The notes: generated by a model not told the origin, from the letters alone. A DNA stretch of 64,000 nt from Bacteroidetes bacterium HGW-Bacteroidetes-10 (GCA_002842695.1 PHDT01000006.1:2358-66357), one strand, 5' to 3'. Positions 23,366 through 45,726 are shown, numbered from the stretch's first letter. A program made the numbers and translations.

Positions 23366-23373
23366 TATATTTG
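23366..23373 (+). promoter_or_regulatory. Candidate -7 box (TATATTTG) for the Tyr-leader transcript
   Basis: Exact TAnnTTTG match, 17 nt upstream of the first in-frame ATG of the leader ORF (23390). Confidence 0.45.
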
Positions 23374-23389
23374 CACAAGAGACACAGAA

Positions 23390-23470
23390 ATGATCAAAAC
23401 TACCATTAACGCCGCTTACATGTATTATTACTACCGCAGTTCAGCTTCGGTAGGCATTGGTATTGGATAG
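23390..23470 (+). CDS. Leader peptide MIKTTINAAYMYYYYRSSASVGIGIG (or the 16-aa version from ATG 23420) with a YYYY run
   Basis: Short ORF below the track cutoff. Four consecutive Tyr codons (TAT TAT TAC TAC, 23423-23434) overlap segment 1 of a four-segment attenuator that precedes the lyase gene. Confidence 0.65.
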   Translation: MIKTTINAAYMYYYYRSSASVGIGIG

Positions 23471-23498
23471 TTTTTAAAAAGCATACATTACACAAAGA

Positions 23499-23530
23499 GG
23501 GCTTACCATATTGGTAGGCCCTTTTTTTTT
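23499..23530 (+). terminator. Intrinsic terminator in the 5' leader of the lyase gene (attenuator)
   Basis: GGGCTTACCA (23499-23508), loop TAT, then TGGTAGGCCC (23512-23521) form a 10-bp stem, followed by T9 (23522-23530). It lies 32 nt upstream of the ATG at 23563, and no convergent gene needs it. Confidence 0.8.
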
Positions 23531-23562
23531 ACCACTAATTAATAACCCCCAAAAATCAAATT

Positions 23563-25023
23563 ATGAAAAATTCAAATGAGCAAAGCAGTGTGCGGTTCTT
23601 TTCAAGAAGACAAATCCCGGTGGAGATGCACAAAGTTAAAATTGTGCAGAGTATTAATCTTGCAAAACCTCAAAGGAGGCTGGATGCAATAGCGGAGGCC
23701 GGATTTAACACTTTTCTTCTTCAGACAGGCGACATATTTCTTGACATGCTTACTGACAGTGGAACAAATGCAATGAGCGATGAACAGGTTTCTAAAATGT
23801 TTGTTGCAGATGATGCATACGCAGGTTCTAAAAGTTTTCTGAAATTAAAGGAGAGTATTTTAGATGTTCTTGGAAAGGAGCTGGTACTCCCTGTCCATCA
23901 GGGAAGGGCTGCAGAGAATATCATCTCTTCTGCCTATGTTGGAATTGGCTCGCATGTGCCCATGAACTACCACTTTACAACAACACTTGCACATATTGAG
24001 AAGAACGGAGGAAAAGTTGCAGAGCTTTACACACCGGAGGCAATGAAAATATCAAGCAATCATCCCTTCAAGGGAAATATGGATATTGGCAGACTTGAAG
24101 AGTTCATAGTACGTCACGGGAAGGATAGGATACCTTTCATCAGGATGGAGGCCTCTACCAATCTCATAGGCGGGCAGCCATTCTCCATGCAGAACTTCAG
24201 AGATGTAAAAAAGGTTGCAGACAAAAATGGAATCCCGGTTGTACTAGATGCCAGTCTTATTGGAGAGAATGCATACTTCATTCTGAAAAGAGAGCCCGGT
24301 TTTGCCGGTTCTGACATGAGAAGCATTTTGAGGGAGATGTGTTCTCTTGCAGATATTGTATATTTCTCTGCGAGAAAACTGAGTTCTGCCAGGGGTGGAG
24401 CAATCTGTACAAACAGCAAAGAGCACTTTGACAAGATGAGGGATCTTGTTCCACTATTTGAGGGTTTTCTCACTTACGGAGGAATATCTGTCAGAGAGAT
24501 TGAAGCTATGGCTGTGGGGCTTAAAGAAACTACGGATGTGAATGTTGCCGGTCAGTCACCGCAATTTATAGAATACATGGTTAAAGAGCTTCAGGCTTTG
24601 TCTGTCCCGGTAATCTCTCCCGGAGGAGCTCTTGGATGTCATATTGATGCCGGAAGCTTTGCCCCTCATATTCCTCAAAGGGAATATCCTGCCGGAGCGG
24701 TAACAGCTGCTTTCTTTATTATTTCAGGTATAAGAGGAATGGAGAGAGGAACTATTAGCAGCACAAGGGACGCTGAGGGGAATGAAATTATGGCAGATAT
24801 GGAGCTGATGCGCCTTGCTTTGCCCAGGAGGCTCTTCACTCTCTCTCAGATTGAGTTTACTATTGACAGACTGCACTGGTTGTTTGAAAACAGAGACTTA
24901 ATAGGAGGGCTCAGATTTACAGAAGAGCCGCCCGTGCTGAGATTTTTTACCGGGCGGCTCGAGCCTGTCAGCGACTGGCCAAAAAGGCTGCTTGATAAAT
25001 TTCTTAAGGATATTTCAATTTAA
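23563..25023 (+). CDS. Beta-eliminating lyase family PLP enzyme, tyrosine phenol-lyase-like
   Basis: 486 aa. LTDSGTNAMSDEQ, DDAYAGS, HQGRAAEN, NYHFTTT, ENAYFI, SARK (PLP Lys), GIRGMERG and LRFFTGRL align to the TPL/tryptophanase family. The FTTT, MERG and RFFT signatures resemble TPL rather than TnaA. Confidence 0.85.
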   Translation: MKNSNEQSSVRFFSRRQIPVEMHKVKIVQSINLAKPQRRLDAIAEAGFNTFLLQTGDIFLDMLTDSGTNAMSDEQVSKMFVADDAYAGSKSFLKLKESILDVLGKELVLPVHQGRAAENIISSAYVGIGSHVPMNYHFTTTLAHIEKNGGKVAELYTPEAMKISSNHPFKGNMDIGRLEEFIVRHGKDRIPFIRMEASTNLIGGQPFSMQNFRDVKKVADKNGIPVVLDASLIGENAYFILKREPGFAGSDMRSILREMCSLADIVYFSARKLSSARGGAICTNSKEHFDKMRDLVPLFEGFLTYGGISVREIEAMAVGLKETTDVNVAGQSPQFIEYMVKELQALSVPVISPGGALGCHIDAGSFAPHIPQREYPAGAVTAAFFIISGIRGMERGTISSTRDAEGNEIMADMELMRLALPRRLFTLSQIEFTIDRLHWLFENRDLIGGLRFTEEPPVLRFFTGRLEPVSDWPKRLLDKFLKDISI

Positions 25024-35053: not shown

Positions 35054-35072
35054 TTATAATTATATATTAGCC

Positions 35073-35104
35073 AAAAATAGCCCAAAAAATTTGGGCTATT
35101 TTTT
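35073..35104. terminator. Hairpin / intrinsic terminator between the BACON-protein gene and the nuclease gene
   Basis: ATAGCCCAA (35077-35085) pairs with TTGGGCTAT (35091-35099), flanked by an A-run and a T-run. Confidence 0.6.
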
Positions 35105-38807: not shown

Positions 38808-41800
38808 TTACTGAACTTTTTCCAGCAGGGCCTCTATTACAAGAGCCTTGTTGACATCAACATTCATATTATTGTTCCACTCTTCAAATACGAGGCTGAA
38901 TCTGTTCGGCCCTTTTTTGAGTTTTATCCTGACTGAATTGGTGACTCCCCATTCATCCCAGAGGTTCTCGCCTCTCTGGGGGAAAACAATTGTTCCGGCA
39001 GTGGTTCCGTTGATATAAACGGTTCTGATTGCGCACTTATTGTCTGTGTTCCACGGGCCGCTGCCGTTTGCATAGCTGAAGGAGAGCAGGTACATTCCCT
39101 CTTGTGTAACATTTGCTTTAAATTCAAGATTCCGGTTAATCTCGCTGGAAATTTCCGTAAAACCATTACCACTGTTTGAATTTCTGAGGTCAATCTTAAT
39201 CTTGTCCCGGGTTTTCAAAACGAGAACAGGTTCAGATGTGAAGGACTCCCAGCCCAGCGAATCAACAGCACTTACCCTAAACTGAGACCCTTCCGGATTT
39301 GAAATCTTAAAGCTGGTTTTATCTGTAACATTATCAACTCTTCCATTATTGTAGATTCTGTAATTTACTGCACCTGCAACAGGGTTCCAGGTTAGCTCTC
39401 CCTTTCTGAGGCTGACCTGCGGGGCAGGAAGAGATGTGTGATTGGATGAGACCTCAAATCTGTCGCCGTCAAATTTATTGTTGTCCATTATGATCTCAAC
39501 AGAGTGCCTGCCATTGAGAGAAGCGGGAAGGAATCCGTTTTCAAGCGGAGCTCCGTCCAGGGTTACAGATTTGGTATTGCGTCCGAATCCCTTTACTGTA
39601 ATGTCCAGAATTGCGTTGCGGTATTTGAAATTCTTAAGTTTTCGGGTGCCTTTGTAAACTTCCGGAATAACGGGTGAAAACCGGATTCCGTCAATTTCAA
39701 AATTCATTCCGGTAAATACCCTGTGAACCATTGCCAGGTTGCCGGCCATACTCCAGAGCATCCTGTCTGAATTGATTTCTGTGCCATTGTAATCTCCAGT
39801 TTCGGCAACCATATTTTCATAGTTTGTAAGAAAGAAAGCACCTGCTCTGTAAACAGAAGCCAGACCGTGAACCAGAGCCTTTTCATTTCCTGCCTTTGCG
39901 GCTGCAAGGTTCCAGAAGCTCTGTACAAATGGCCAGATTGCATTATTGTGATAGGGTGGAATTCCCGGAATCTGAGGATAGATGCAAGATGCGCCAAATT
40001 CAGTGACAGGAGAGGCAGAGAGAATCAGCCTTGCTTTTTCCTCTCCTGCTACTCCAAAGAGGATATTGAGTGCCTCTCCAAGCGCTTCATACCTTTCTGA
40101 CAGCAGGAGGTGGTCTCTTCCGTAAAGGAAGTTTCCGTAGAATCCTCTCTCCTCCATCCAGAATTTTTTATTGATAGCATTTTTGATGCCCTCTGCGCGC
40201 TGCTCGTATATGGATCCATCCTCTCCAAGGAGTTTTGCGGCCATTGCCAGAATCTTGTGTGCCTGATAGTGTACGGCATTTGTTCCAAGATTCTCAGATA
40301 CAAAGATATCCTTGTTATCCATCCATTTGGGATAGGTCTGTTCGCGCCAGTCCAGAAATGATGACTCTCCCCGGAATAGCCCTGTTCCTGGATTGTAAAG
40401 GGTGAGGAAATCGTCGTCGAGAGTGTTTTTAATAATGGGATAAATTGTTTTGAGCCACTCTTTATCACCTGTAACTTTATAAATCTCCCATGCGGCTATA
40501 GCCCATGTTGTTCTGTCCGATGATACCGGCCATGCTCCGCCGGAGCCGGTGTCCTGAATAATTCTGCCGCGCTTTACCTTCTTCATGAGGCTTATTTTTG
40601 CCACCTCAGGTTCGTGGTAAGCAAAGGCAAGCAGAATGCTGTATGATATGTCCCTTGTCCATACTCCGCTCCACTTGGCTCCTGTGCGGAAAGTGCTGTC
40701 GGCCTCAATGTTAATTAATGCCTCTTCGAGAGACATGTTAAAAAGGGCATCAACAATTGGCTGTTCAGATGTGTATCTTGGTTTTGCGGAAAGATCTCTG
40801 GAAATAACTCTTGTTTTTGTTGTTCCGGCAGGTTCTGTCCCAAGCGGGCTGAAGTAATCTGATTCAATTGAATCTCTCGAGATTATTGTAGCTGTATTGC
40901 TGCCCTGAATTACCTTGTCTGAAAAGAGAGAGAATTTTTCGCTGATGTAAATAGCCGGGCTGAATGCTTTCTCTGCGGGAGAGGGAGACATCTCAAATGT
41001 AAGGGTGCCGCCGGCGGTGATGTCGCTGTGCTTGAGGTGAGGGCGGGAGAGAGGCACTCCGTTGAGGAGTGCTCTCTTGACGTATACATTTTGTTTGCTT
41101 TGGTTCTTTGTCTCAATCCGGAACTCTCTCCCGCCCTCCAGCTTAATAACAGCAGATACAACGGAGGGACTGCCAATATCGTATGAATCGCTGCCCGGGG
41201 CAACAGGGTAAAAGCCCAGGGACGAGAAGATGTACCATGCGCTCATCTGCCCGCAGTCATCGTTACCGCTAAGGCCGTCAACAGCCGGATTGTATTTTGT
41301 TTCCAGAATTTCCCGGATGTATTTCTGTCCTTTCCATGGCATACCTGCATAGTTAAAGAGATATGGCACATGGTGAGATGGTTCATTTCCGTGAATGTAA
41401 TTGCCCATGATTCCTTCCCGGGTTATATCCTCAGTCTGCGCAAAATATTTGTCAGGCAGCTCCATTGTGAAAAGGGAGTCAAGATGCTCTGCAAACCTTT
41501 TGCTGCCGCCCATAAGTGAGATAAGGGAATCTGGATGATGGGGAACATAGAGGCTGTAGTTCCATGCGTTACCCTCTATGAAACCCTGCCCGTGTGTATC
41601 CAGCGGGTCAAACTCCTTCCTGAATGTGCCATCTGAAAGCTTCGGACGCATAAAGCCGGACGATTTATCGAAGAGATTTCTGTATGAGAGTGCCCTTTTT
41701 GAGAACTCTTCGTACAAATCTTTTCTTCCGAGCTTGAGTGCCATCTGAGCTATTGCCCAGTCGTCGTATGCATATTCGAGTGTTTTTGAGACAGAGTTGC

Positions 41801-43238
41801 CGCTCAGATCTTCGGGAACATATCCTCTCCTGATATATAGCCCCAGCCCGTCGTAATAATTGTTTCTTGCAGTAACAGCACAAGCCTCCAGTGCAGCCTC
41901 TGCATCAAAACCGCCAATTCCCTTAATAACAGCATCTGCCAGAACAGAGACTGAATGGTATCCTATCATACACCAGTTTTCGTTTGCATAGTGCGACCAG
42001 ACAGGGAGCATTTTGTGAACACTCTGATTGTAATGGGCAATCATGGAATTAACCATGTCTGAATTACGTTTGGGCTCAATTATATTGTAAAGCGGATGGA
42101 GTGCCCGGTAGGTATCCCAAAGTGAGAATGTTGTATAGTTAGTAAAGCCGGTGGCCTTGTGGATATTCATATCGAGCCCCCTGTAGCTTCCGTCTGTATC
42201 CATATAGATGGTCGTTCCAAGCATTGCATGGTACATTGCTGTATAGAAATTAATCTTCTCTCCGTCAGTAAGAGTTTCTATCTCAATTTTTGCAAGTTCT
42301 TTTTCCCAGGCCTCATATCCATCCCGACGATACTTTTCAAAGTCCCAGCCCGGAGCCTCTGCTGCCATATTTGCCAAAGCCCCGTTTGTACTGACAGGCG
42401 AAAGCGCAACTTTAACCACAATCTTCTCTCCCTCCTTCGTGTCAAAGTCAAAATGGGCCCTCAGCTGGGAACCTGCCAGTTCCGGAAAGTTCGTGGTCTG
42501 ATCGAATTTGCGCCAGAACCCTCTGTACACAGACTGGGGTCCAAAGTTCTTGCTTCCGTAGCTTTTAAATGGTTTTGAAAACTTAATTGCAAAATATACA
42601 GTGCGGGTTCTTGCCCAGCCGTTTGTCTGTCTGTAACCTGTAATAGTTGAGTCGTTTTCTATCCTCACAAATGTCCATACATTTTTTCCTTCGTAGTTAT
42701 AGATTCCGTGAACCAGGTCAAGTATTATATGGGCACTGTCACTTTTGGGGAATGTATATCTGTGAATGCCCACCCGGGTAGTTGCAGCAAGTTCTGCCTC
42801 AATACCGTGGTCATCCAGATGAACCTTGTAGTATCCTGGCTCTGCCATCTCCCTGTCGTGTGAAAAGGAGCTTCTGAAGCCGCTCTGCGGATTCTCTGCC
42901 GTTCCGGGATTAAGCTGAAGCCGCCCTGTCGCTGGCATAATAAGGATATCCCCAAGGTCTGAATGGCCCGTTCCGCTAAAGTGCGTATGGCTGAAGCCCA
43001 CAATTGTCCTGTCTGAATACTGGTAGCCTGCGCAGTATCTGTAGACCTCCTTGTTGTATTTTCCTCCGGACTCATAGCTTAAGGTATCCGTATCCGGGCT
43101 TAACTGTACCATCCCAAAGGGCATTGAAGCCCCCGGATAGGTGTGTCCCATTTTGTCAGTACCAATGAATGGATTTACATATTGAGCCAGATTTCCCTGA
43201 AGCAGAAAAAATGTAGCTAAGGAGAAGAGGAGATTCAT
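38808..43238 (-). CDS. GH92 alpha-mannosidase fused to a six-hairpin (COG3408/GDE_C-like) glycosidase domain, an Fn3-like domain and a CBM6-like domain
   Basis: 1476 aa. The N-terminal ~750 aa carry GH92 blocks (VNPFIGTDKMGHTYPGA, FSHTHFSGTG, GNEPSHHVPYLFNY, DDCGQMSAWY). Residues ~800-1250 are (alpha/alpha)6-like (GVWTRDISYS, FRGESSFLDWREQTYP). The C-terminus is a lectin-like beta sandwich. Confidence 0.8.
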   Translation of the reverse strand: MNLLFSLATFFLLQGNLAQYVNPFIGTDKMGHTYPGASMPFGMVQLSPDTDTLSYESGGKYNKEVYRYCAGYQYSDRTIVGFSHTHFSGTGHSDLGDILIMPATGRLQLNPGTAENPQSGFRSSFSHDREMAEPGYYKVHLDDHGIEAELAATTRVGIHRYTFPKSDSAHIILDLVHGIYNYEGKNVWTFVRIENDSTITGYRQTNGWARTRTVYFAIKFSKPFKSYGSKNFGPQSVYRGFWRKFDQTTNFPELAGSQLRAHFDFDTKEGEKIVVKVALSPVSTNGALANMAAEAPGWDFEKYRRDGYEAWEKELAKIEIETLTDGEKINFYTAMYHAMLGTTIYMDTDGSYRGLDMNIHKATGFTNYTTFSLWDTYRALHPLYNIIEPKRNSDMVNSMIAHYNQSVHKMLPVWSHYANENWCMIGYHSVSVLADAVIKGIGGFDAEAALEACAVTARNNYYDGLGLYIRRGYVPEDLSGNSVSKTLEYAYDDWAIAQMALKLGRKDLYEEFSKRALSYRNLFDKSSGFMRPKLSDGTFRKEFDPLDTHGQGFIEGNAWNYSLYVPHHPDSLISLMGGSKRFAEHLDSLFTMELPDKYFAQTEDITREGIMGNYIHGNEPSHHVPYLFNYAGMPWKGQKYIREILETKYNPAVDGLSGNDDCGQMSAWYIFSSLGFYPVAPGSDSYDIGSPSVVSAVIKLEGGREFRIETKNQSKQNVYVKRALLNGVPLSRPHLKHSDITAGGTLTFEMSPSPAEKAFSPAIYISEKFSLFSDKVIQGSNTATIISRDSIESDYFSPLGTEPAGTTKTRVISRDLSAKPRYTSEQPIVDALFNMSLEEALINIEADSTFRTGAKWSGVWTRDISYSILLAFAYHEPEVAKISLMKKVKRGRIIQDTGSGGAWPVSSDRTTWAIAAWEIYKVTGDKEWLKTIYPIIKNTLDDDFLTLYNPGTGLFRGESSFLDWREQTYPKWMDNKDIFVSENLGTNAVHYQAHKILAMAAKLLGEDGSIYEQRAEGIKNAINKKFWMEERGFYGNFLYGRDHLLLSERYEALGEALNILFGVAGEEKARLILSASPVTEFGASCIYPQIPGIPPYHNNAIWPFVQSFWNLAAAKAGNEKALVHGLASVYRAGAFFLTNYENMVAETGDYNGTEINSDRMLWSMAGNLAMVHRVFTGMNFEIDGIRFSPVIPEVYKGTRKLKNFKYRNAILDITVKGFGRNTKSVTLDGAPLENGFLPASLNGRHSVEIIMDNNKFDGDRFEVSSNHTSLPAPQVSLRKGELTWNPVAGAVNYRIYNNGRVDNVTDKTSFKISNPEGSQFRVSAVDSLGWESFTSEPVLVLKTRDKIKIDLRNSNSGNGFTEISSEINRNLEFKANVTQEGMYLLSFSYANGSGPWNTDNKCAIRTVYINGTTAGTIVFPQRGENLWDEWGVTNSVRIKLKKGPNRFSLVFEEWNNNMNVDVNKALVIEALLEKVQ

Positions 43239-43296: not shown

Positions 43297-44274
43297 CTAC
43301 ATTAATGCTATTCCAAGCTTTTGCTGTTCCATGAGAATATCTTCAGGCCAGATTCCAACCTGCACTTCACCAATATGGCTTTTTCTCAAAAGGAACATGC
43401 AAAGTCGTGACTGGCCTATTCCTCCCCCTATGCTCTCCGGAAGTTCACCTGCCAGCAGCATTGAGTGGTAGGCAAGCTTACTCTTTTCAGTACAATTTCT
43501 GATTTCCAGCTGTCTCTGAAGAGCCAGACTGTCTACCCTTATTCCCATTGAGGATATTTCAAAAGCCCTCTTAAGAAGAGGATGCCATACAAGAATATCG
43601 CCGTTAAGGCTCCAGTCGTCGTAATCTGCAGCTCTTCCGTCATGAGGCTTTCCATCTGAAAGATTCCCTCCAATTCCAATTATGAAGACTGCACCAAGTT
43701 TGCCGGTAATCATGTTTTCGCGCTCCTTTGCCGTAAAGCCGGGGTACATGTCAAGCAGCTCCTGAGATTTAACAAATGAGATTTTTTCAGGTAAAACAGG
43801 TCGAAGCTCAGGATCTATTTCGAAAAGCTTATGCTCAGTGTCTCTGATTACCGAATAGATTTTTTCAACACAATTCATAAGATATGAAAGAGTGCGCTCA
43901 TGTTTTTCAATTCTCAGCTCCCAGTCCCACTGATCTACATAAAGAGAGTGAATTGAGGTGAAATCTTCATCGGGGCGAAGTGCCCTCATATCTGTTATTA
44001 TTCCCTCTCCGCAGGCAGCACCTGTCTGCATCAGCCTTACTCTCTTCCATTTTGCAAGTGAGTGGACAACAACTGCCCTTCTCTCCTGCATTGCCTTAAC
44101 AGGGAATGAAACAGCTCTCTCAAAACCATTAAGATCGTCATTAATGCCTGTTCCGTCCATAACGGCTATTGGGGATGACACTTTTACAAGGTTGAGCTGC
44201 TTTTCCAGTCCTGCAGAAAATGACTCTTTTACATAGGCAATTGCCTTTTCGGTTTTAAGAATTTCCGGTTTCAT
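43297..44274 (-). CDS. asnA: Aspartate--ammonia ligase (asparagine synthetase A)
   Basis: Start trimmed to MKPEILKTEKAIAYVKESF (ATG 44274). It aligns throughout to AsnA (HSLAKWKR, ALRPDED, YVDQWDWE, GIGG.LSDG, DYDDW, NGDILVW, SSMGIRVD, GGGIGQSRL). Confidence 0.93.
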   Translation of the reverse strand: MKPEILKTEKAIAYVKESFSAGLEKQLNLVKVSSPIAVMDGTGINDDLNGFERAVSFPVKAMQERRAVVVHSLAKWKRVRLMQTGAACGEGIITDMRALRPDEDFTSIHSLYVDQWDWELRIEKHERTLSYLMNCVEKIYSVIRDTEHKLFEIDPELRPVLPEKISFVKSQELLDMYPGFTAKERENMITGKLGAVFIIGIGGNLSDGKPHDGRAADYDDWSLNGDILVWHPLLKRAFEISSMGIRVDSLALQRQLEIRNCTEKSKLAYHSMLLAGELPESIGGGIGQSRLCMFLLRKSHIGEVQVGIWPEDILMEQQKLGIALM

Positions 44275-44293: not shown

Positions 44294-44325
44294 AAAAAAA
44301 AAGCCCCCTGCAGAGTGCAGAAGGC
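44294..44325 (-). terminator. Intrinsic terminator immediately upstream of asnA (attenuator)
   Basis: Minus-strand GCCTTCTGCA (44325-44316), loop CTC, then TGCAGGGGGC (44312-44303) form a 10-bp stem with 2 G-U pairs, followed by T9 (44302-44294). It ends 19 nt before the asnA ATG. Confidence 0.85.
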
Positions 44326-44353
44326 TAATATTTATAAAAAGGGTTAGTTGAAT

Positions 44354-44440
44354 TTACATGTTAAAAAACAATAGCCTCCCGCTCCGAATAAGATTATTAT
44401 TCGAATTATTATTGAAAAGGTTATTGTTTAAATGGGCCAT
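44354..44440 (-). CDS. Asn-rich leader peptide MAHLNNNLFNNNSNNNLIRSGRLLFFNM
   Basis: 28-codon ORF below the track cutoff, with 10 Asn codons in three NNN runs plus one more. Its 3' part contains the antiterminator segment GCGGGAGGCT. Confidence 0.75.
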   Translation of the reverse strand: MAHLNNNLFNNNSNNNLIRSGRLLFFNM

Positions 44441-44458
44441 TGTTTGTTGATTACGACG

Positions 44459-44466
44459 CAAATATA
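44459..44466 (-). promoter_or_regulatory. Candidate -7 box (TATATTTG) for the asnA leader transcript
   Basis: Exact TAnnTTTG match on the minus strand, 18 nt upstream of the leader ATG at 44440. Confidence 0.5.
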
Positions 44467-44511
44467 ACCAGAAAATTAATTCAAGGTTCATTTTTTATTA
44501 AAAATTGTAAA

Positions 44512-45726
44512 TTATTTTAACAAACCGGCAATATAACCGGTTGTCCAGGCGTTCTGAAGGTTATACCCGCCAGTAATTGCATCAATATCCAGAACTTCAC
44601 CCGCAAAATAGAGACCTGTACATCTCTTGCTCTCCATGTTTTTGAAATTGACATCATCCAGACTCACTCCGCCGCAGGTGACAAACTCCTCGCGGAAGGT
44701 TGTCTTGCCCTTTATTGAATATTCATCATTAGTAAGCAGGTTAACGAGCCTGTTCTTCCCTTTGCTTCCAACCTCCACCCACTTCTTGTCTGAGGGAAGT
44801 TCACACTTCCCCAGAAGAAAATCCCACAGACGGACCGGTATAGCATATGGTCTTACTGTTGTGAGCATTTTGCCGGGATGGTCAGAAATAATTTTATCAA
44901 TTACTTCTGTTACCTTATCATTGTTAGTCTCATTTACCCAGTTAACCTGAATTTTGAAGTCATATCCCCTCTCACTCATTATCCTTGCACCATGAGATGA
45001 CAGCTTAAGAATTGCAGGACCGCTCATTCCCCAGTGGGTTATCAGGAGCGGGCCACCTGTTCTTATTTTTGTACCCTGAAGAGTTACCAGTGCCTCTTCA
45101 ATAACAATTCCCATAAGTTTCCTTATATCTTCTCCGGGCATGTTGAAGGTGAAGAGTGAGGGTACAGGTTCTTCGATTTTGTGGCCCAGTCTCTCAAGCC
45201 ACTCCAGCCCGCTCCGCTTTGGAGATCCTCCGGTAGTTATAATAACTTTGTCGAACGATAAGGGTACCCTCTCTGGATTAATAAAAGTAAGTTCAAGTGA
45301 ATTACCGGCCCGGGTAATGGATTTTACACCTGCATCTGTAATTACCTCCACACCCAGTCGTTTTGCCTCTCTGGTCAGACAGCTGGTGATGCTGCCGGAA
45401 TCCTGCGTCCTGGGGAAGATGCAGCCATCAGCCTGTAAAACAAGCTGAACACCTCTTGATTCAAACCACTGAACAGTATCTTTATTGTTAAAAAAGGGAA
45501 ATATTTTTCTAAGCCTGCGTCCGCCGCGGGGGTATGCGCCGCAAAGCTCGTCAATGGTTTCACAGCCGTTGGTGACATTACACCTGCCGCCTCCTGAAAC
45601 CCTTACTTTGTGCAGTACTTTTGATGATTTTTCGAAAATGGTAACTGATGCCTCCGGGTGATTCTCCTTTGCTGTAATTGCAGAGAAGAAACCGGCCGCA
45701 CCTCCGCCTATGATGGCAACATTCAT
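44512..45726 (-). CDS. NAD(P)/FAD-dependent oxidoreductase (HI0933/BaiN-like)
   Basis: 404 aa with N-terminal IIGGGAAGFF, GGGRCNVTN and C-terminal FAGEVLDIDAITGGYNLQ blocks. Confidence 0.85.
   Translation of the reverse strand: MNVAIIGGGAAGFFSAITAKENHPEASVTIFEKSSKVLHKVRVSGGGRCNVTNGCETIDELCGAYPRGGRRLRKIFPFFNNKDTVQWFESRGVQLVLQADGCIFPRTQDSGSITSCLTREAKRLGVEVITDAGVKSITRAGNSLELTFINPERVPLSFDKVIITTGGSPKRSGLEWLERLGHKIEEPVPSLFTFNMPGEDIRKLMGIVIEEALVTLQGTKIRTGGPLLITHWGMSGPAILKLSSHGARIMSERGYDFKIQVNWVNETNNDKVTEVIDKIISDHPGKMLTTVRPYAIPVRLWDFLLGKCELPSDKKWVEVGSKGKNRLVNLLTNDEYSIKGKTTFREEFVTCGGVSLDDVNFKNMESKRCTGLYFAGEVLDIDAITGGYNLQNAWTTGYIAGLLK

Follow-up and report, generated by a model that had tools for sequence, protein, structure and literature searches.

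A predicted asparagine-codon leader peptide and transcription attenuator upstream of asnA in Bacteroidota

Introduction

The trpL (RF00513), hisL (RF00514), thrL (RF00506), leuL (RF00512), pheL (RF01859) and ilv leaders of the Proteobacteria follow a common design, in which a short open reading frame (ORF) carries tandem codons for the amino acid that is sensed, the RNA can form overlapping 1:2, 2:3 and 3:4 helices, and an intrinsic terminator lies just 5' of the biosynthetic gene. Stalling of the ribosome on the control codons frees segment 2 of the leader. Here we analyse a leader with the same layout upstream of asnA, the gene for aspartate--ammonia ligase, in a stretch of 64,000 nucleotides (nt) from Bacteroidetes bacterium HGW-Bacteroidetes-10 (GCA_002842695.1, PHDT01000006.1:2358-66357), which we refer to as the window. 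From its sequence, and that of related loci, we consider it likely that this leader is a functional asparagine (Asn)-responsive, ribosome-mediated leader-peptide transcription attenuator, which senses the supply of charged tRNA-Asn. It differs from the Proteobacterial leaders in the amino acid that would be sensed, in having asnA as its target, in the phylum where it occurs and in an additional conserved hairpin, P1, which lies between segments 1 and 2, and it has no sequence or covariance model (CM) similarity to them.

In Escherichia coli asnA is controlled by the AsnC protein, and the asnA-asnS operon of Lactobacillus reportedly has an Asn T-box (Kim et al., J Bacteriol 1996). Among the Firmicutes an Asn-specific T-box is also found before an ABC transporter, and asnS is under T-box control in a few species (PMC2494555). 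These Asn T-boxes likewise sense the charging of tRNA-Asn and antiterminate within the 5' leader. However, in a T-box the specifier codon and the T-box sequence make direct contact with the uncharged tRNA and no translation is involved, whereas the asnA leader has an ORF instead.

Bacteroidota do not rely on Shine-Dalgarno initiation. Leader-peptide attenuation in this phylum has been reported for the Bacteroid-trp family, RF01692 (PMC2864571), and isoleucine, histidine and aromatic leaders have been predicted in Flavobacterium psychrophilum (PMC9723704 supplement). An earlier reading of the window, made from the sequence alone (the sequence-only reading), had called this form of control sparsely documented in Bacteroidota; these two sources show that it was already documented there. 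In addition, 5' untranslated regions that contain small ORFs (sORFs) are found in Bacteroides thetaiotaomicron (PMC7366714). The Bacteroid-trp and F. psychrophilum leaders share the phylum and the inferred mechanism with the asnA leader and concern other amino acids and target genes. Neither source lists an Asn or asnA element (PMC2864571, PMC9723704 supplement), and the annotation of F. psychrophilum lists asnB, not asnA (PMC9723704 supplement). The attenuator survey of Naville and Gautheret names neither asnA nor Bacteroidetes (PMC2965389). The sequence-only reading knew of no described Asn leader for asnA, and our search agrees with it, having found neither an Asn-codon leader nor attenuation at asnA described in the open-access literature, with a mention in a subscription journal being possible. 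The mechanism itself is known, and what is new is the amino acid specificity, the target gene and the sequence family.

Results

An asparagine-rich leader ORF precedes asnA

A gap of 237 nt separates asnA from a flavoprotein gene (44512-45726), and all of the leader elements are housed there on the minus strand (Table 1). The asnA product is an equivalog-level match to TIGR00669 (E = 7e-111, 370.7 bits against a cut-off of 292.8). Asn accounts for 10 of the 28 codons of the leader ORF, so that the coordinates (44440 to 44354) and the count in the sequence-only reading both hold. The codons are arranged as three NNN runs (44428-44420, 44413-44405 and 44401-44393), with a single further Asn codon at 44362-44360. 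Among the 950 ATG-started sORFs of 10-60 codons in the window, the leader ORF has the highest Asn count, the next unrelated sORF having six. Dinucleotide-preserving shuffles of the intergenic region gave an ATG sORF with at least 10 Asn codons in just 4 of 20,000 cases, and a chance origin of the Asn-rich leader is unlikely.

The proposed -7 box is present on the minus strand at 44466-44459, with the sequence TATATTTG, and a TAnnTTTG-like box can be seen by eye 19-30 nt 5' of the leader ATG in the homologous loci. The position of the box in the window places the predicted transcription start ~10-15 nt 5' of the leader ATG. ORF listing also returned an extension of the leader to 45 amino acids (MNLELIFWLYLRRNQQTM..., 44354-44491, minus strand), which we rejected. 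Its ATG at 44491 precedes the -7 box and lacks conservation, the counterpart being TTG in the relative L201, whose AsnA is 91% identical, and the 28-codon ORF is therefore the conserved unit. The 45-residue version is probably not used.

The region did not match any described leader family. At the gathering thresholds it was not assigned to RF00513, RF00514, RF00506, RF00512, RF01859 or RF01692, and in a cmscan search at E <= 10 the sole leader match was to Phe_leader, which scored 18.4 bits against a gathering threshold of 55 and lay over the terminator; all matches at this level were below threshold, dependent on the terminator and spurious. Neither Bacteroid-trp (RF01692) nor the T-box (RF00230) matched the region at E <= 10. 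An Rfam scan of the whole window at gathering thresholds returned four tRNAs and nothing else.

Table 1. Predicted elements of the asnA leader in the window, with the gene they precede
Feature	Position	Strand	Basis or detail
-7 element TATATTTG	44459..44466	-	Bacteroidota sigma-A type TAnnTTTG, from sequence
Leader ORF, 28 codons + stop, MAHLNNNLFNNNSNNNLIRSGRLLFFNM	44354..44440	-	ATG 44440, TAA 44356-44354
Segment 1 AACAAUAACCUUUU, Asn run 1 + Leu/Phe codons, 5' strand of P0	44415..44428	-	Homologue minimum free energy folds
P1 hairpin UUCGAAUAA-UAAUC-UUAUUCGGA, Asn run 3 in 5' arm + loop	44383..44405	-	Minimum free energy fold, covariation
Segment 2 GCGGGAGGCUAUUGUU; 44382-44373 for antiterminator, 44380-44367 for P0	44367..44382	-	Duplex search, alignments
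Segment 3 AGCCUUCUGCA, terminator 5' arm, common to antiterminator and terminator	44316..44326	-	
Segment 4 UGCAGGGGGCU, terminator 3' arm	44302..44312	-	11 pairs, loop CUC
U9 tract; predicted premature 3' ends	44294..44302	-	Sequence + terminator scan
asnA, aspartate--ammonia ligase, 325 amino acids, regulated gene in the proposed model	43297..44274	-	TIGR00669

The arrangement recurs upstream of asnA across Bacteroidota

We observed the same layout 5' of asnA in ~20 distinct lineages of Bacteroidota. A scan of species-representative genomes for relatives of AsnA gave 80 loci, nearly all from this phylum and with 52-64% identity, of which 75 had enough upstream sequence. At least five Asn codons within a span of 12 codons were found upstream in 8 of the 75, and in all eight of these a terminator, consisting of a hairpin and a T tract, follows; the other 67 loci have a terminator-like upstream site in nine cases. 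The carriers in this set are Hymenobacter pini, H. endophyticus, H. frigidus, Myroides odoratimimus, a Flavobacteriales metagenome-assembled genome (MAG) and Bacteroidales MAGs. Protein-based look-ups found the element in 7 of 10 cases. These were L201, with the leader MAHLNNNLINNNSNNNLIRSGRLLFFNL, a Seonamhaeicola species, a Flammeovirgaceae MAG, a Rikenellaceae MAG, 'HGW-Bacteroidetes-8' and two more metagenomic lineages, while Sphingobacterium, Pseudopedobacter and one further lineage in these look-ups were without it. A pattern scan of metagenomes with the conserved core TCGAATAATAATN{1,3}TATTCNG gave at least 120 matches. Among the matches listed, 7 were true multi-run Asn leaders, all directly 5' of asnA, and 113 were chance single-NNN sites inside unrelated ORFs; the pattern is too AT-rich to survey the regulon (asnB, asnS and transporter genes). 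Across the relatives the Asn-run ORF, the terminator and the antiterminator described below recur together 5' of asnA.

A covariance model, R1, was built from 15 unit sequences, a unit being one leader ORF with its terminator, and scores the window element at 134 bits. True members range from 47 to 144 bits, class-II and truncated units (see below) from 24 to 47, and the unrelated background reaches ~30 at most. When run on ~400 kb of loci, R1 matched only upstream of asnA, besides weak terminator-only matches. One match, in L079, was rejected as spurious, being a terminator past asnA.

In every locus the Asn unit directly precedes asnA on its strand, irrespective of which other genes lie nearby. 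The upstream neighbour varies by locus and is divergent in L211, L213 and L215, so that the terminator belongs to the asnA unit and not to the preceding gene. This bears on the simplest objection to our reading, that the hairpin in the window is merely the terminator of the flavoprotein gene and the Asn ORF an accident of AT-rich DNA. The region is indeed AT-rich (31-35% GC), and the terminator does lie downstream of a same-strand gene. However, we find this explanation scarcely credible, as the terminator is ~190 nt past the flavoprotein stop codon with the -7 box in between, at least 10 Asn codons so seldom arose in the shuffles, and the arrangement recurs with different or divergent upstream genes and in distant orders of the phylum with compensatory changes.

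Two observations on spacing and variants stand beside this survey. In three Hymenobacter loci (L002, L003 and L008) ~175-200 nt separate the leader terminator from the asnA start, compared with 19 nt in the window, and the extra stretch is free of Asn codon runs but can form a short GC hairpin (CTCCCGCAGGGGAG). In L028, a MAG labelled Pseudomonadota, an Asn-rich stretch (HNQSPINNQNNNN) with a strong terminator lies ~230 nt 5' of asnA (1100-1290). Upstream of asnA in L028 we found no short ATG-led ORF and no R1 match, and the stretch could be a different, degenerate or mis-binned variant.

Two classes of unit, often in tandem

The units fall into two classes. Class I has the codon pattern NN(N)...SNNN, the P1 hairpin and the motif GGRAGGYUAUUG, and class II has the form M..NNNNNN..PP* and is not homologous to class I. 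In six loci (L023, L043, L069, L209, L213 and L217) two Asn-leader-plus-terminator units are found in tandem 5' of asnA, and the window has a single unit. The ORFs of the second tandem units are short and end in proline (MIKQFVNNNNNNNSSP, MKRNYNTNNNNAPP, MRVNNFSHNFFNTPP and MINLNINNRNNSPPLSPV), and the class-II second unit has a CCNCC...AAAGG hairpin and an antiterminator-like pairing of its own. The terminal Pro-Pro codons might add a pause that depends on elongation factor P. The tandem units can be likened to tandem T-boxes and tandem riboswitches; we know of no described tandem leader-peptide attenuators.

The terminator and antiterminator are mutually exclusive and covary

The leader RNA has a minimum free energy (MFE) of -45.2 kcal/mol (z = -4.2), and none of 200 shuffles folded as well. 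Its terminator consists of AGCCTTCTGCA (44326-44316) and TGCAGGGGGCT (44312-44302) closing a CTC loop of 3 nt, with 11 pairs of which six are G-C, followed by T9. The asnA ATG, at 44274, lies 19 nt past the T tract. The strong terminator that had been noticed there is present, with an 11-bp stem at 44326-44302. Taking structure statistics from a cleaned consensus structure and a CM-based realignment, the terminator helix is 97% paired across units, and 5 of its 8 pairs change on both sides.

The alternative partner of the terminator 5' arm lies inside the leader ORF. GCGGGAGGCT (44382-44373) can pair with AGCCTTCTGC (44326-44317) over 10 bp, including two G-U pairs, with an RNAduplex energy of -18.2 kcal/mol (z = -6.0 against shuffled leaders). 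The sequence-only reading had proposed exactly this 10-bp antiterminator between leader codons and the terminator arm, and we find it present, conserved and covarying. In all 18 class-I units the terminator 5' arm pairs best, within the upstream leader, with the homologous GGRAGGYU site, the duplexes having energies of -9 to -18 kcal/mol and z values of -2.0 to -6.0 against shuffled leaders. On a plain MAFFT alignment, RNAalifold predicted the antiterminator and P1 unprompted. On this alignment, to which no structure had been fitted, 95.2% of the antiterminator cells are paired and 4 of 7 pairs are changed on both sides, with the compensatory variants GGAAGG/CCUUCC, GGGAGG/CCUCCC and GAAAGG/CCUUUC. 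On the CM alignment, made with a model that held the terminator and not the antiterminator, the value is 97.5%. None of 500 shuffles matched the antiterminator pairing on either the MAFFT or the CM alignment, and slid partners reach about 63-64% at most. Segment 3 is used by both the antiterminator and the terminator, which are mutually exclusive. The elements are present, conserved and specifically associated with asnA, and the alternative helices covary.

Candidate roles of P1 and P0

The third helix of the sequence-only reading was a pairing at 44403-44385 between the third Asn run and the sequence beyond it, which was taken as the 1:2 helix. The hairpin is real. We observed its pairing as TTCGAATAA with TTATTCGGA (44405-44397 and 44391-44383) in the MFE fold of the window; across units its cells are 80-86% paired, with both-sided changes in 3-4 of 8 pairs, as in CGGAAC...GUUCCG (L220) and CUGAAUG...CAUUCGG (L213). 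Its proposed role as anti-antiterminator did not stand, since the 3' arm of P1 ends one base before the antiterminator strand, stopping short of segment 2, and P1 cannot compete with the antiterminator. It may instead serve, between segments 1 and 2, as a hairpin for nucleation or pausing.

A better candidate for the 1:2 helix is P0, in which AACAAUAACCUUUU (44428-44415) pairs with GGGAGGCUAUUGUU (44380-44367) and encloses P1. When leaders were folded up to the terminator, P0 appeared in the MFE folds of most homologues, with the consensus AAUAAUCUCUU and GGGAGGYUAUUGUU, and it spans 18 bp in the Bacteroidales relative L006. On the alignments 81-82% of the P0 cells are paired, compared with no more than 59% for a slid partner. 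P0 takes up the whole antiterminator strand, which would make it the classical 1:2 anti-antiterminator, and in the folded models the pairing of the first Asn run and CUUUUC with GGGAGGCUAUUGUU fits that role.

Control codons are kept in frame and segment 2 is kept as RNA

An ATG opens the frame that reads the AAY repeats as Asn in 18 of 18 class-I units, and each of the 18 class-I and 6 class-II units has an ORF with a start and a stop codon of its own. The homologues have 6-10 Asn codons 5' of segment 2. AAU and AAC swap synonymously among the leaders, and the alignments show that indels in the control-codon region are of 3 or 6 nt, with gaps of 1-2 nt solely beyond P1. Past the Asn runs the peptide is not conserved and the RNA is. 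The length of the leader, and with it the position of the stop codon, varies between 15 and 30 codons. The motif GGCUAUUG is found in three separate reading frames across species (the window, G-AGG-CUA-UUG; Hymenobacter pini, GCU-AUU; H. frigidus, GAG-GCU-AUU), and it is 3' of the leader stop codon in L209 and in Seonamhaeicola. As the segment 2 motif stands in differing frames, it is conserved as RNA. Judged from these alignments, in-frame control codons combined with frame-independent RNA conservation are the signature of a regulatory leader peptide, not of a functional small protein.

This pattern also allows us to weigh a switch that works without translation, in which the direct ligand of P1 and GGGAGGCUAUUG would be a protein, a metabolite or, as for a T-box, uncharged tRNA-Asn. 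Its binding would select the terminator or the antiterminator, the ORF being incidental. Such a switch would account for the conservation of GGRAGGYUAUUG and of the P1 stem as RNA irrespective of frame and for the covariation of P1, and the AAU/AAC repeats are complementary to the tRNA-Asn anticodon GUU. We nevertheless regard it as improbable. An incidental ORF would not be expected to keep its ATG, its open frame and its in-frame Asn codons in every unit, the non-homologous class II included, nor to restrict indels in the codon region to multiples of three while AAU and AAC alternate synonymously. The conservation of segment 2 is already explained by its complementarity to segments 1 and 3, no T-box or other Rfam family matches, and the spacing between the last Asn codon and segment 2 (11-16 nt, see below) fits the footprint of a ribosome.

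It is also conceivable that the ~150-nt unit is an independent small gene for an Asn-rich micropeptide or a small RNA, possibly trans-acting, to which asnA is a mere neighbour. The unit does have its own promoter-like box and strong terminator, and terminated attenuator RNAs can work in trans elsewhere, rnTrpL of Sinorhizobium being one case (PMC7968998). This is very improbable in our view, because the unit directly precedes asnA on its strand in every locus, the peptide is unconserved outside the Asn runs with a length of 15-30 codons, none of ten leader peptides had an exact match among 15 billion collected proteins, and the conserved antiterminator would have no purpose in a stand-alone gene. 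A secondary trans role for the terminated leader RNA may exist alongside attenuation.

Other features of the window

Downstream of asnA, after 58 nt, the window contains a gene for a 1476-residue protein (38808-43238, minus strand), a fusion of a GH92 alpha-mannosidase-like part with a GDE_C / rhamnosidase-like part. No obvious terminator was seen between asnA and this gene, and the Asn attenuator could therefore also affect its transcription.

A second leader-type element is found at 23366-23531 on the plus strand, 5' of a gene at 23563-25023 (plus strand) whose product belongs to the beta-eliminating lyases (tryptophanase / tyrosine phenol-lyase family). The element comprises a -7 box TATATTTG (23366-23373), an sORF (23391-23471) encoding MIKTTINAAYMYYYYRSSASVGIGIG with five tyrosine (Tyr) codons, and a terminator GGGCTTACCA-TAT-TGGTAGGCCC followed by T9. 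Within the leader, CGGTAGGC mimics the terminator 3' arm. Folding of the element gave z = -4.7, and R1 scores it at 30 bits. A similar leader, MKSTNYNINSLYYYYRRLPRVGYGIGLC, with a terminator is present in one relative (L221, L223; lyase 75% identical), and no Tyr-rich ORF was found in another (L224, L225; lyase 70% identical). A Tyr-codon attenuator before a degradative lyase is counter-intuitive, and by analogy it might sense free tyrosine, as TnaC senses tryptophan. The presence of a Tyr leader and terminator (23391-23531) of the same design elsewhere in the window counts in favour of the attenuator reading of the asnA leader.

The four tRNA genes are clustered at 852-1187 on the minus strand (Thr-GGT, Gly-TCC, Tyr-GTA and Thr-TGT). 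At 35070-35104 a symmetric hairpin between an A run and a T run (AAAAATAGCCCAAAAAATTTGGGCTATTTTTT) gives a weak R1 match on both strands, and by its sequence it looks like a bidirectional terminator.

Discussion

The sequence-only reading had proposed an attenuator of the trp/his type that switches on asnA, and the asnA-linked Asn ORF and terminator, together with the conserved and covarying antiterminator, support it. We propose the following model. Transcription would start just 3' of the -7 box (44466-44459), and a ribosome would translate the 28-codon leader as RNA polymerase moves on. When Asn-tRNA is plentiful, the ribosome would cross the nine Asn codons and segment 2 (GGGAGGCU) toward the stop codon, segment 2 would be inside the ribosome or recaptured by segment 1 to form P0, and the free segment 3 would pair with segment 4, the hairpin and U9 terminating transcription at ~44294, before asnA. 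When Asn-tRNA is scarce, the ribosome would stall on an Asn run, covering segment 1 and/or P1 with its 3' edge just short of segment 2. The free segment 2 would then pair with the nascent segment 3, its GGGAGGCU with AGCCUUCU, and this antiterminator would block the terminator and let polymerase read into asnA. We infer the use of the promoter, the translation of the leader, the stalling at Asn codons and the timing of the switch.

The geometry of the leader is consistent with this model. The distance from the start of the last preceding Asn codon to segment 2 is 11-16 nt in 16 of 18 units. From A site to 3' edge a ribosome spans just this length, so that a ribosome stalled on the last control codon would melt P1 and stop at the antiterminator strand. 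When a ribosome was masked on an Asn codon and the transcript ended after segment 3, 15 of 18 units folded into the antiterminator for every Asn codon that lies 5' of segment 2, and the remaining three did so for all but one.

Several points weigh against the attenuator model. In equilibrium folding the full-length leader prefers the terminator for most simulated stalls, and in 13 of 18 units no ribosome is needed for the antiterminator to form in a transcript that ends after segment 3. Covariation in P0 is weak, with 1 of 11 pairs changed on both sides, and the MFE fold of the window pairs GGCUAUUGUUU with the start-codon region AAACAAUGGCC and not with Asn run 1. The stop codon of the window leader starts 26 nt past the start of segment 2, so a terminating ribosome would not cover segment 2. 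The element is also patchy, most Prevotella, Bacteroides, Muribaculaceae and Sphingobacterium asnA loci being without it. Finally, the start site, the 3' ends and the response to asparagine are predictions from the DNA.

How far do the folding results bear on the switch? The comparison of alternative folds that had been suggested for this region returned a structured leader (z = -4.2), and equilibrium energies do not reproduce the switch. The masked-ribosome folds favour the terminator or the antiterminator according to where the transcript ends; MFE energies therefore cannot decide the switch, and we set them aside as evidence. P0 is AU-rich and thermodynamically less stable than the antiterminator. 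The outcome must therefore depend on which helix forms first, a kinetic decision of the kind known from trp. As for the stop codon, it is near enough for direct masking of segment 2 in L209, L217, L220, L123 and L043. In the window a terminating ribosome would instead sit between segments 2 and 3 and block their pairing, and P0 would presumably re-form behind the ribosome.

Beyond the single locus, we lean towards the broader view that the units constitute an undescribed, phylum-wide family of Asn-sensing leader-peptide attenuators in two classes that are often in tandem, with the window element as its founding example and, to our knowledge, the first ribosome-mediated attenuator for Asn. If this is correct, the place of the family in Bacteroidota would correspond to that of Asn T-boxes in Firmicutes and of the AsnC protein in E. 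coli, and it would point to tight coupling of transcription and translation in a phylum with unusual translation initiation. The tandem arrangement would sharpen the response. An attenuator of this kind needs a ribosome close behind RNA polymerase, and the leader would thus provide a simple natural reporter of transcription-translation coupling in Bacteroidota.

The family is broad, sharply delimited and apparently unannotated, and the covariance model R1 could enter Rfam and improve the annotation of intergenic regions and unannotated sORFs, and the leader could serve as a compact Asn-responsive part for engineering gut and environmental Bacteroidota. For the biology of these organisms, asparagine would be added to the few amino acids for which sensing by leader-peptide attenuation is known or predicted, and a sizeable part of the phylum, with Hymenobacter, Myroides, Seonamhaeicola, Flammeovirgaceae and several lineages of Bacteroidales among it, could control asnA in this way, without a protein regulator or a T-box.

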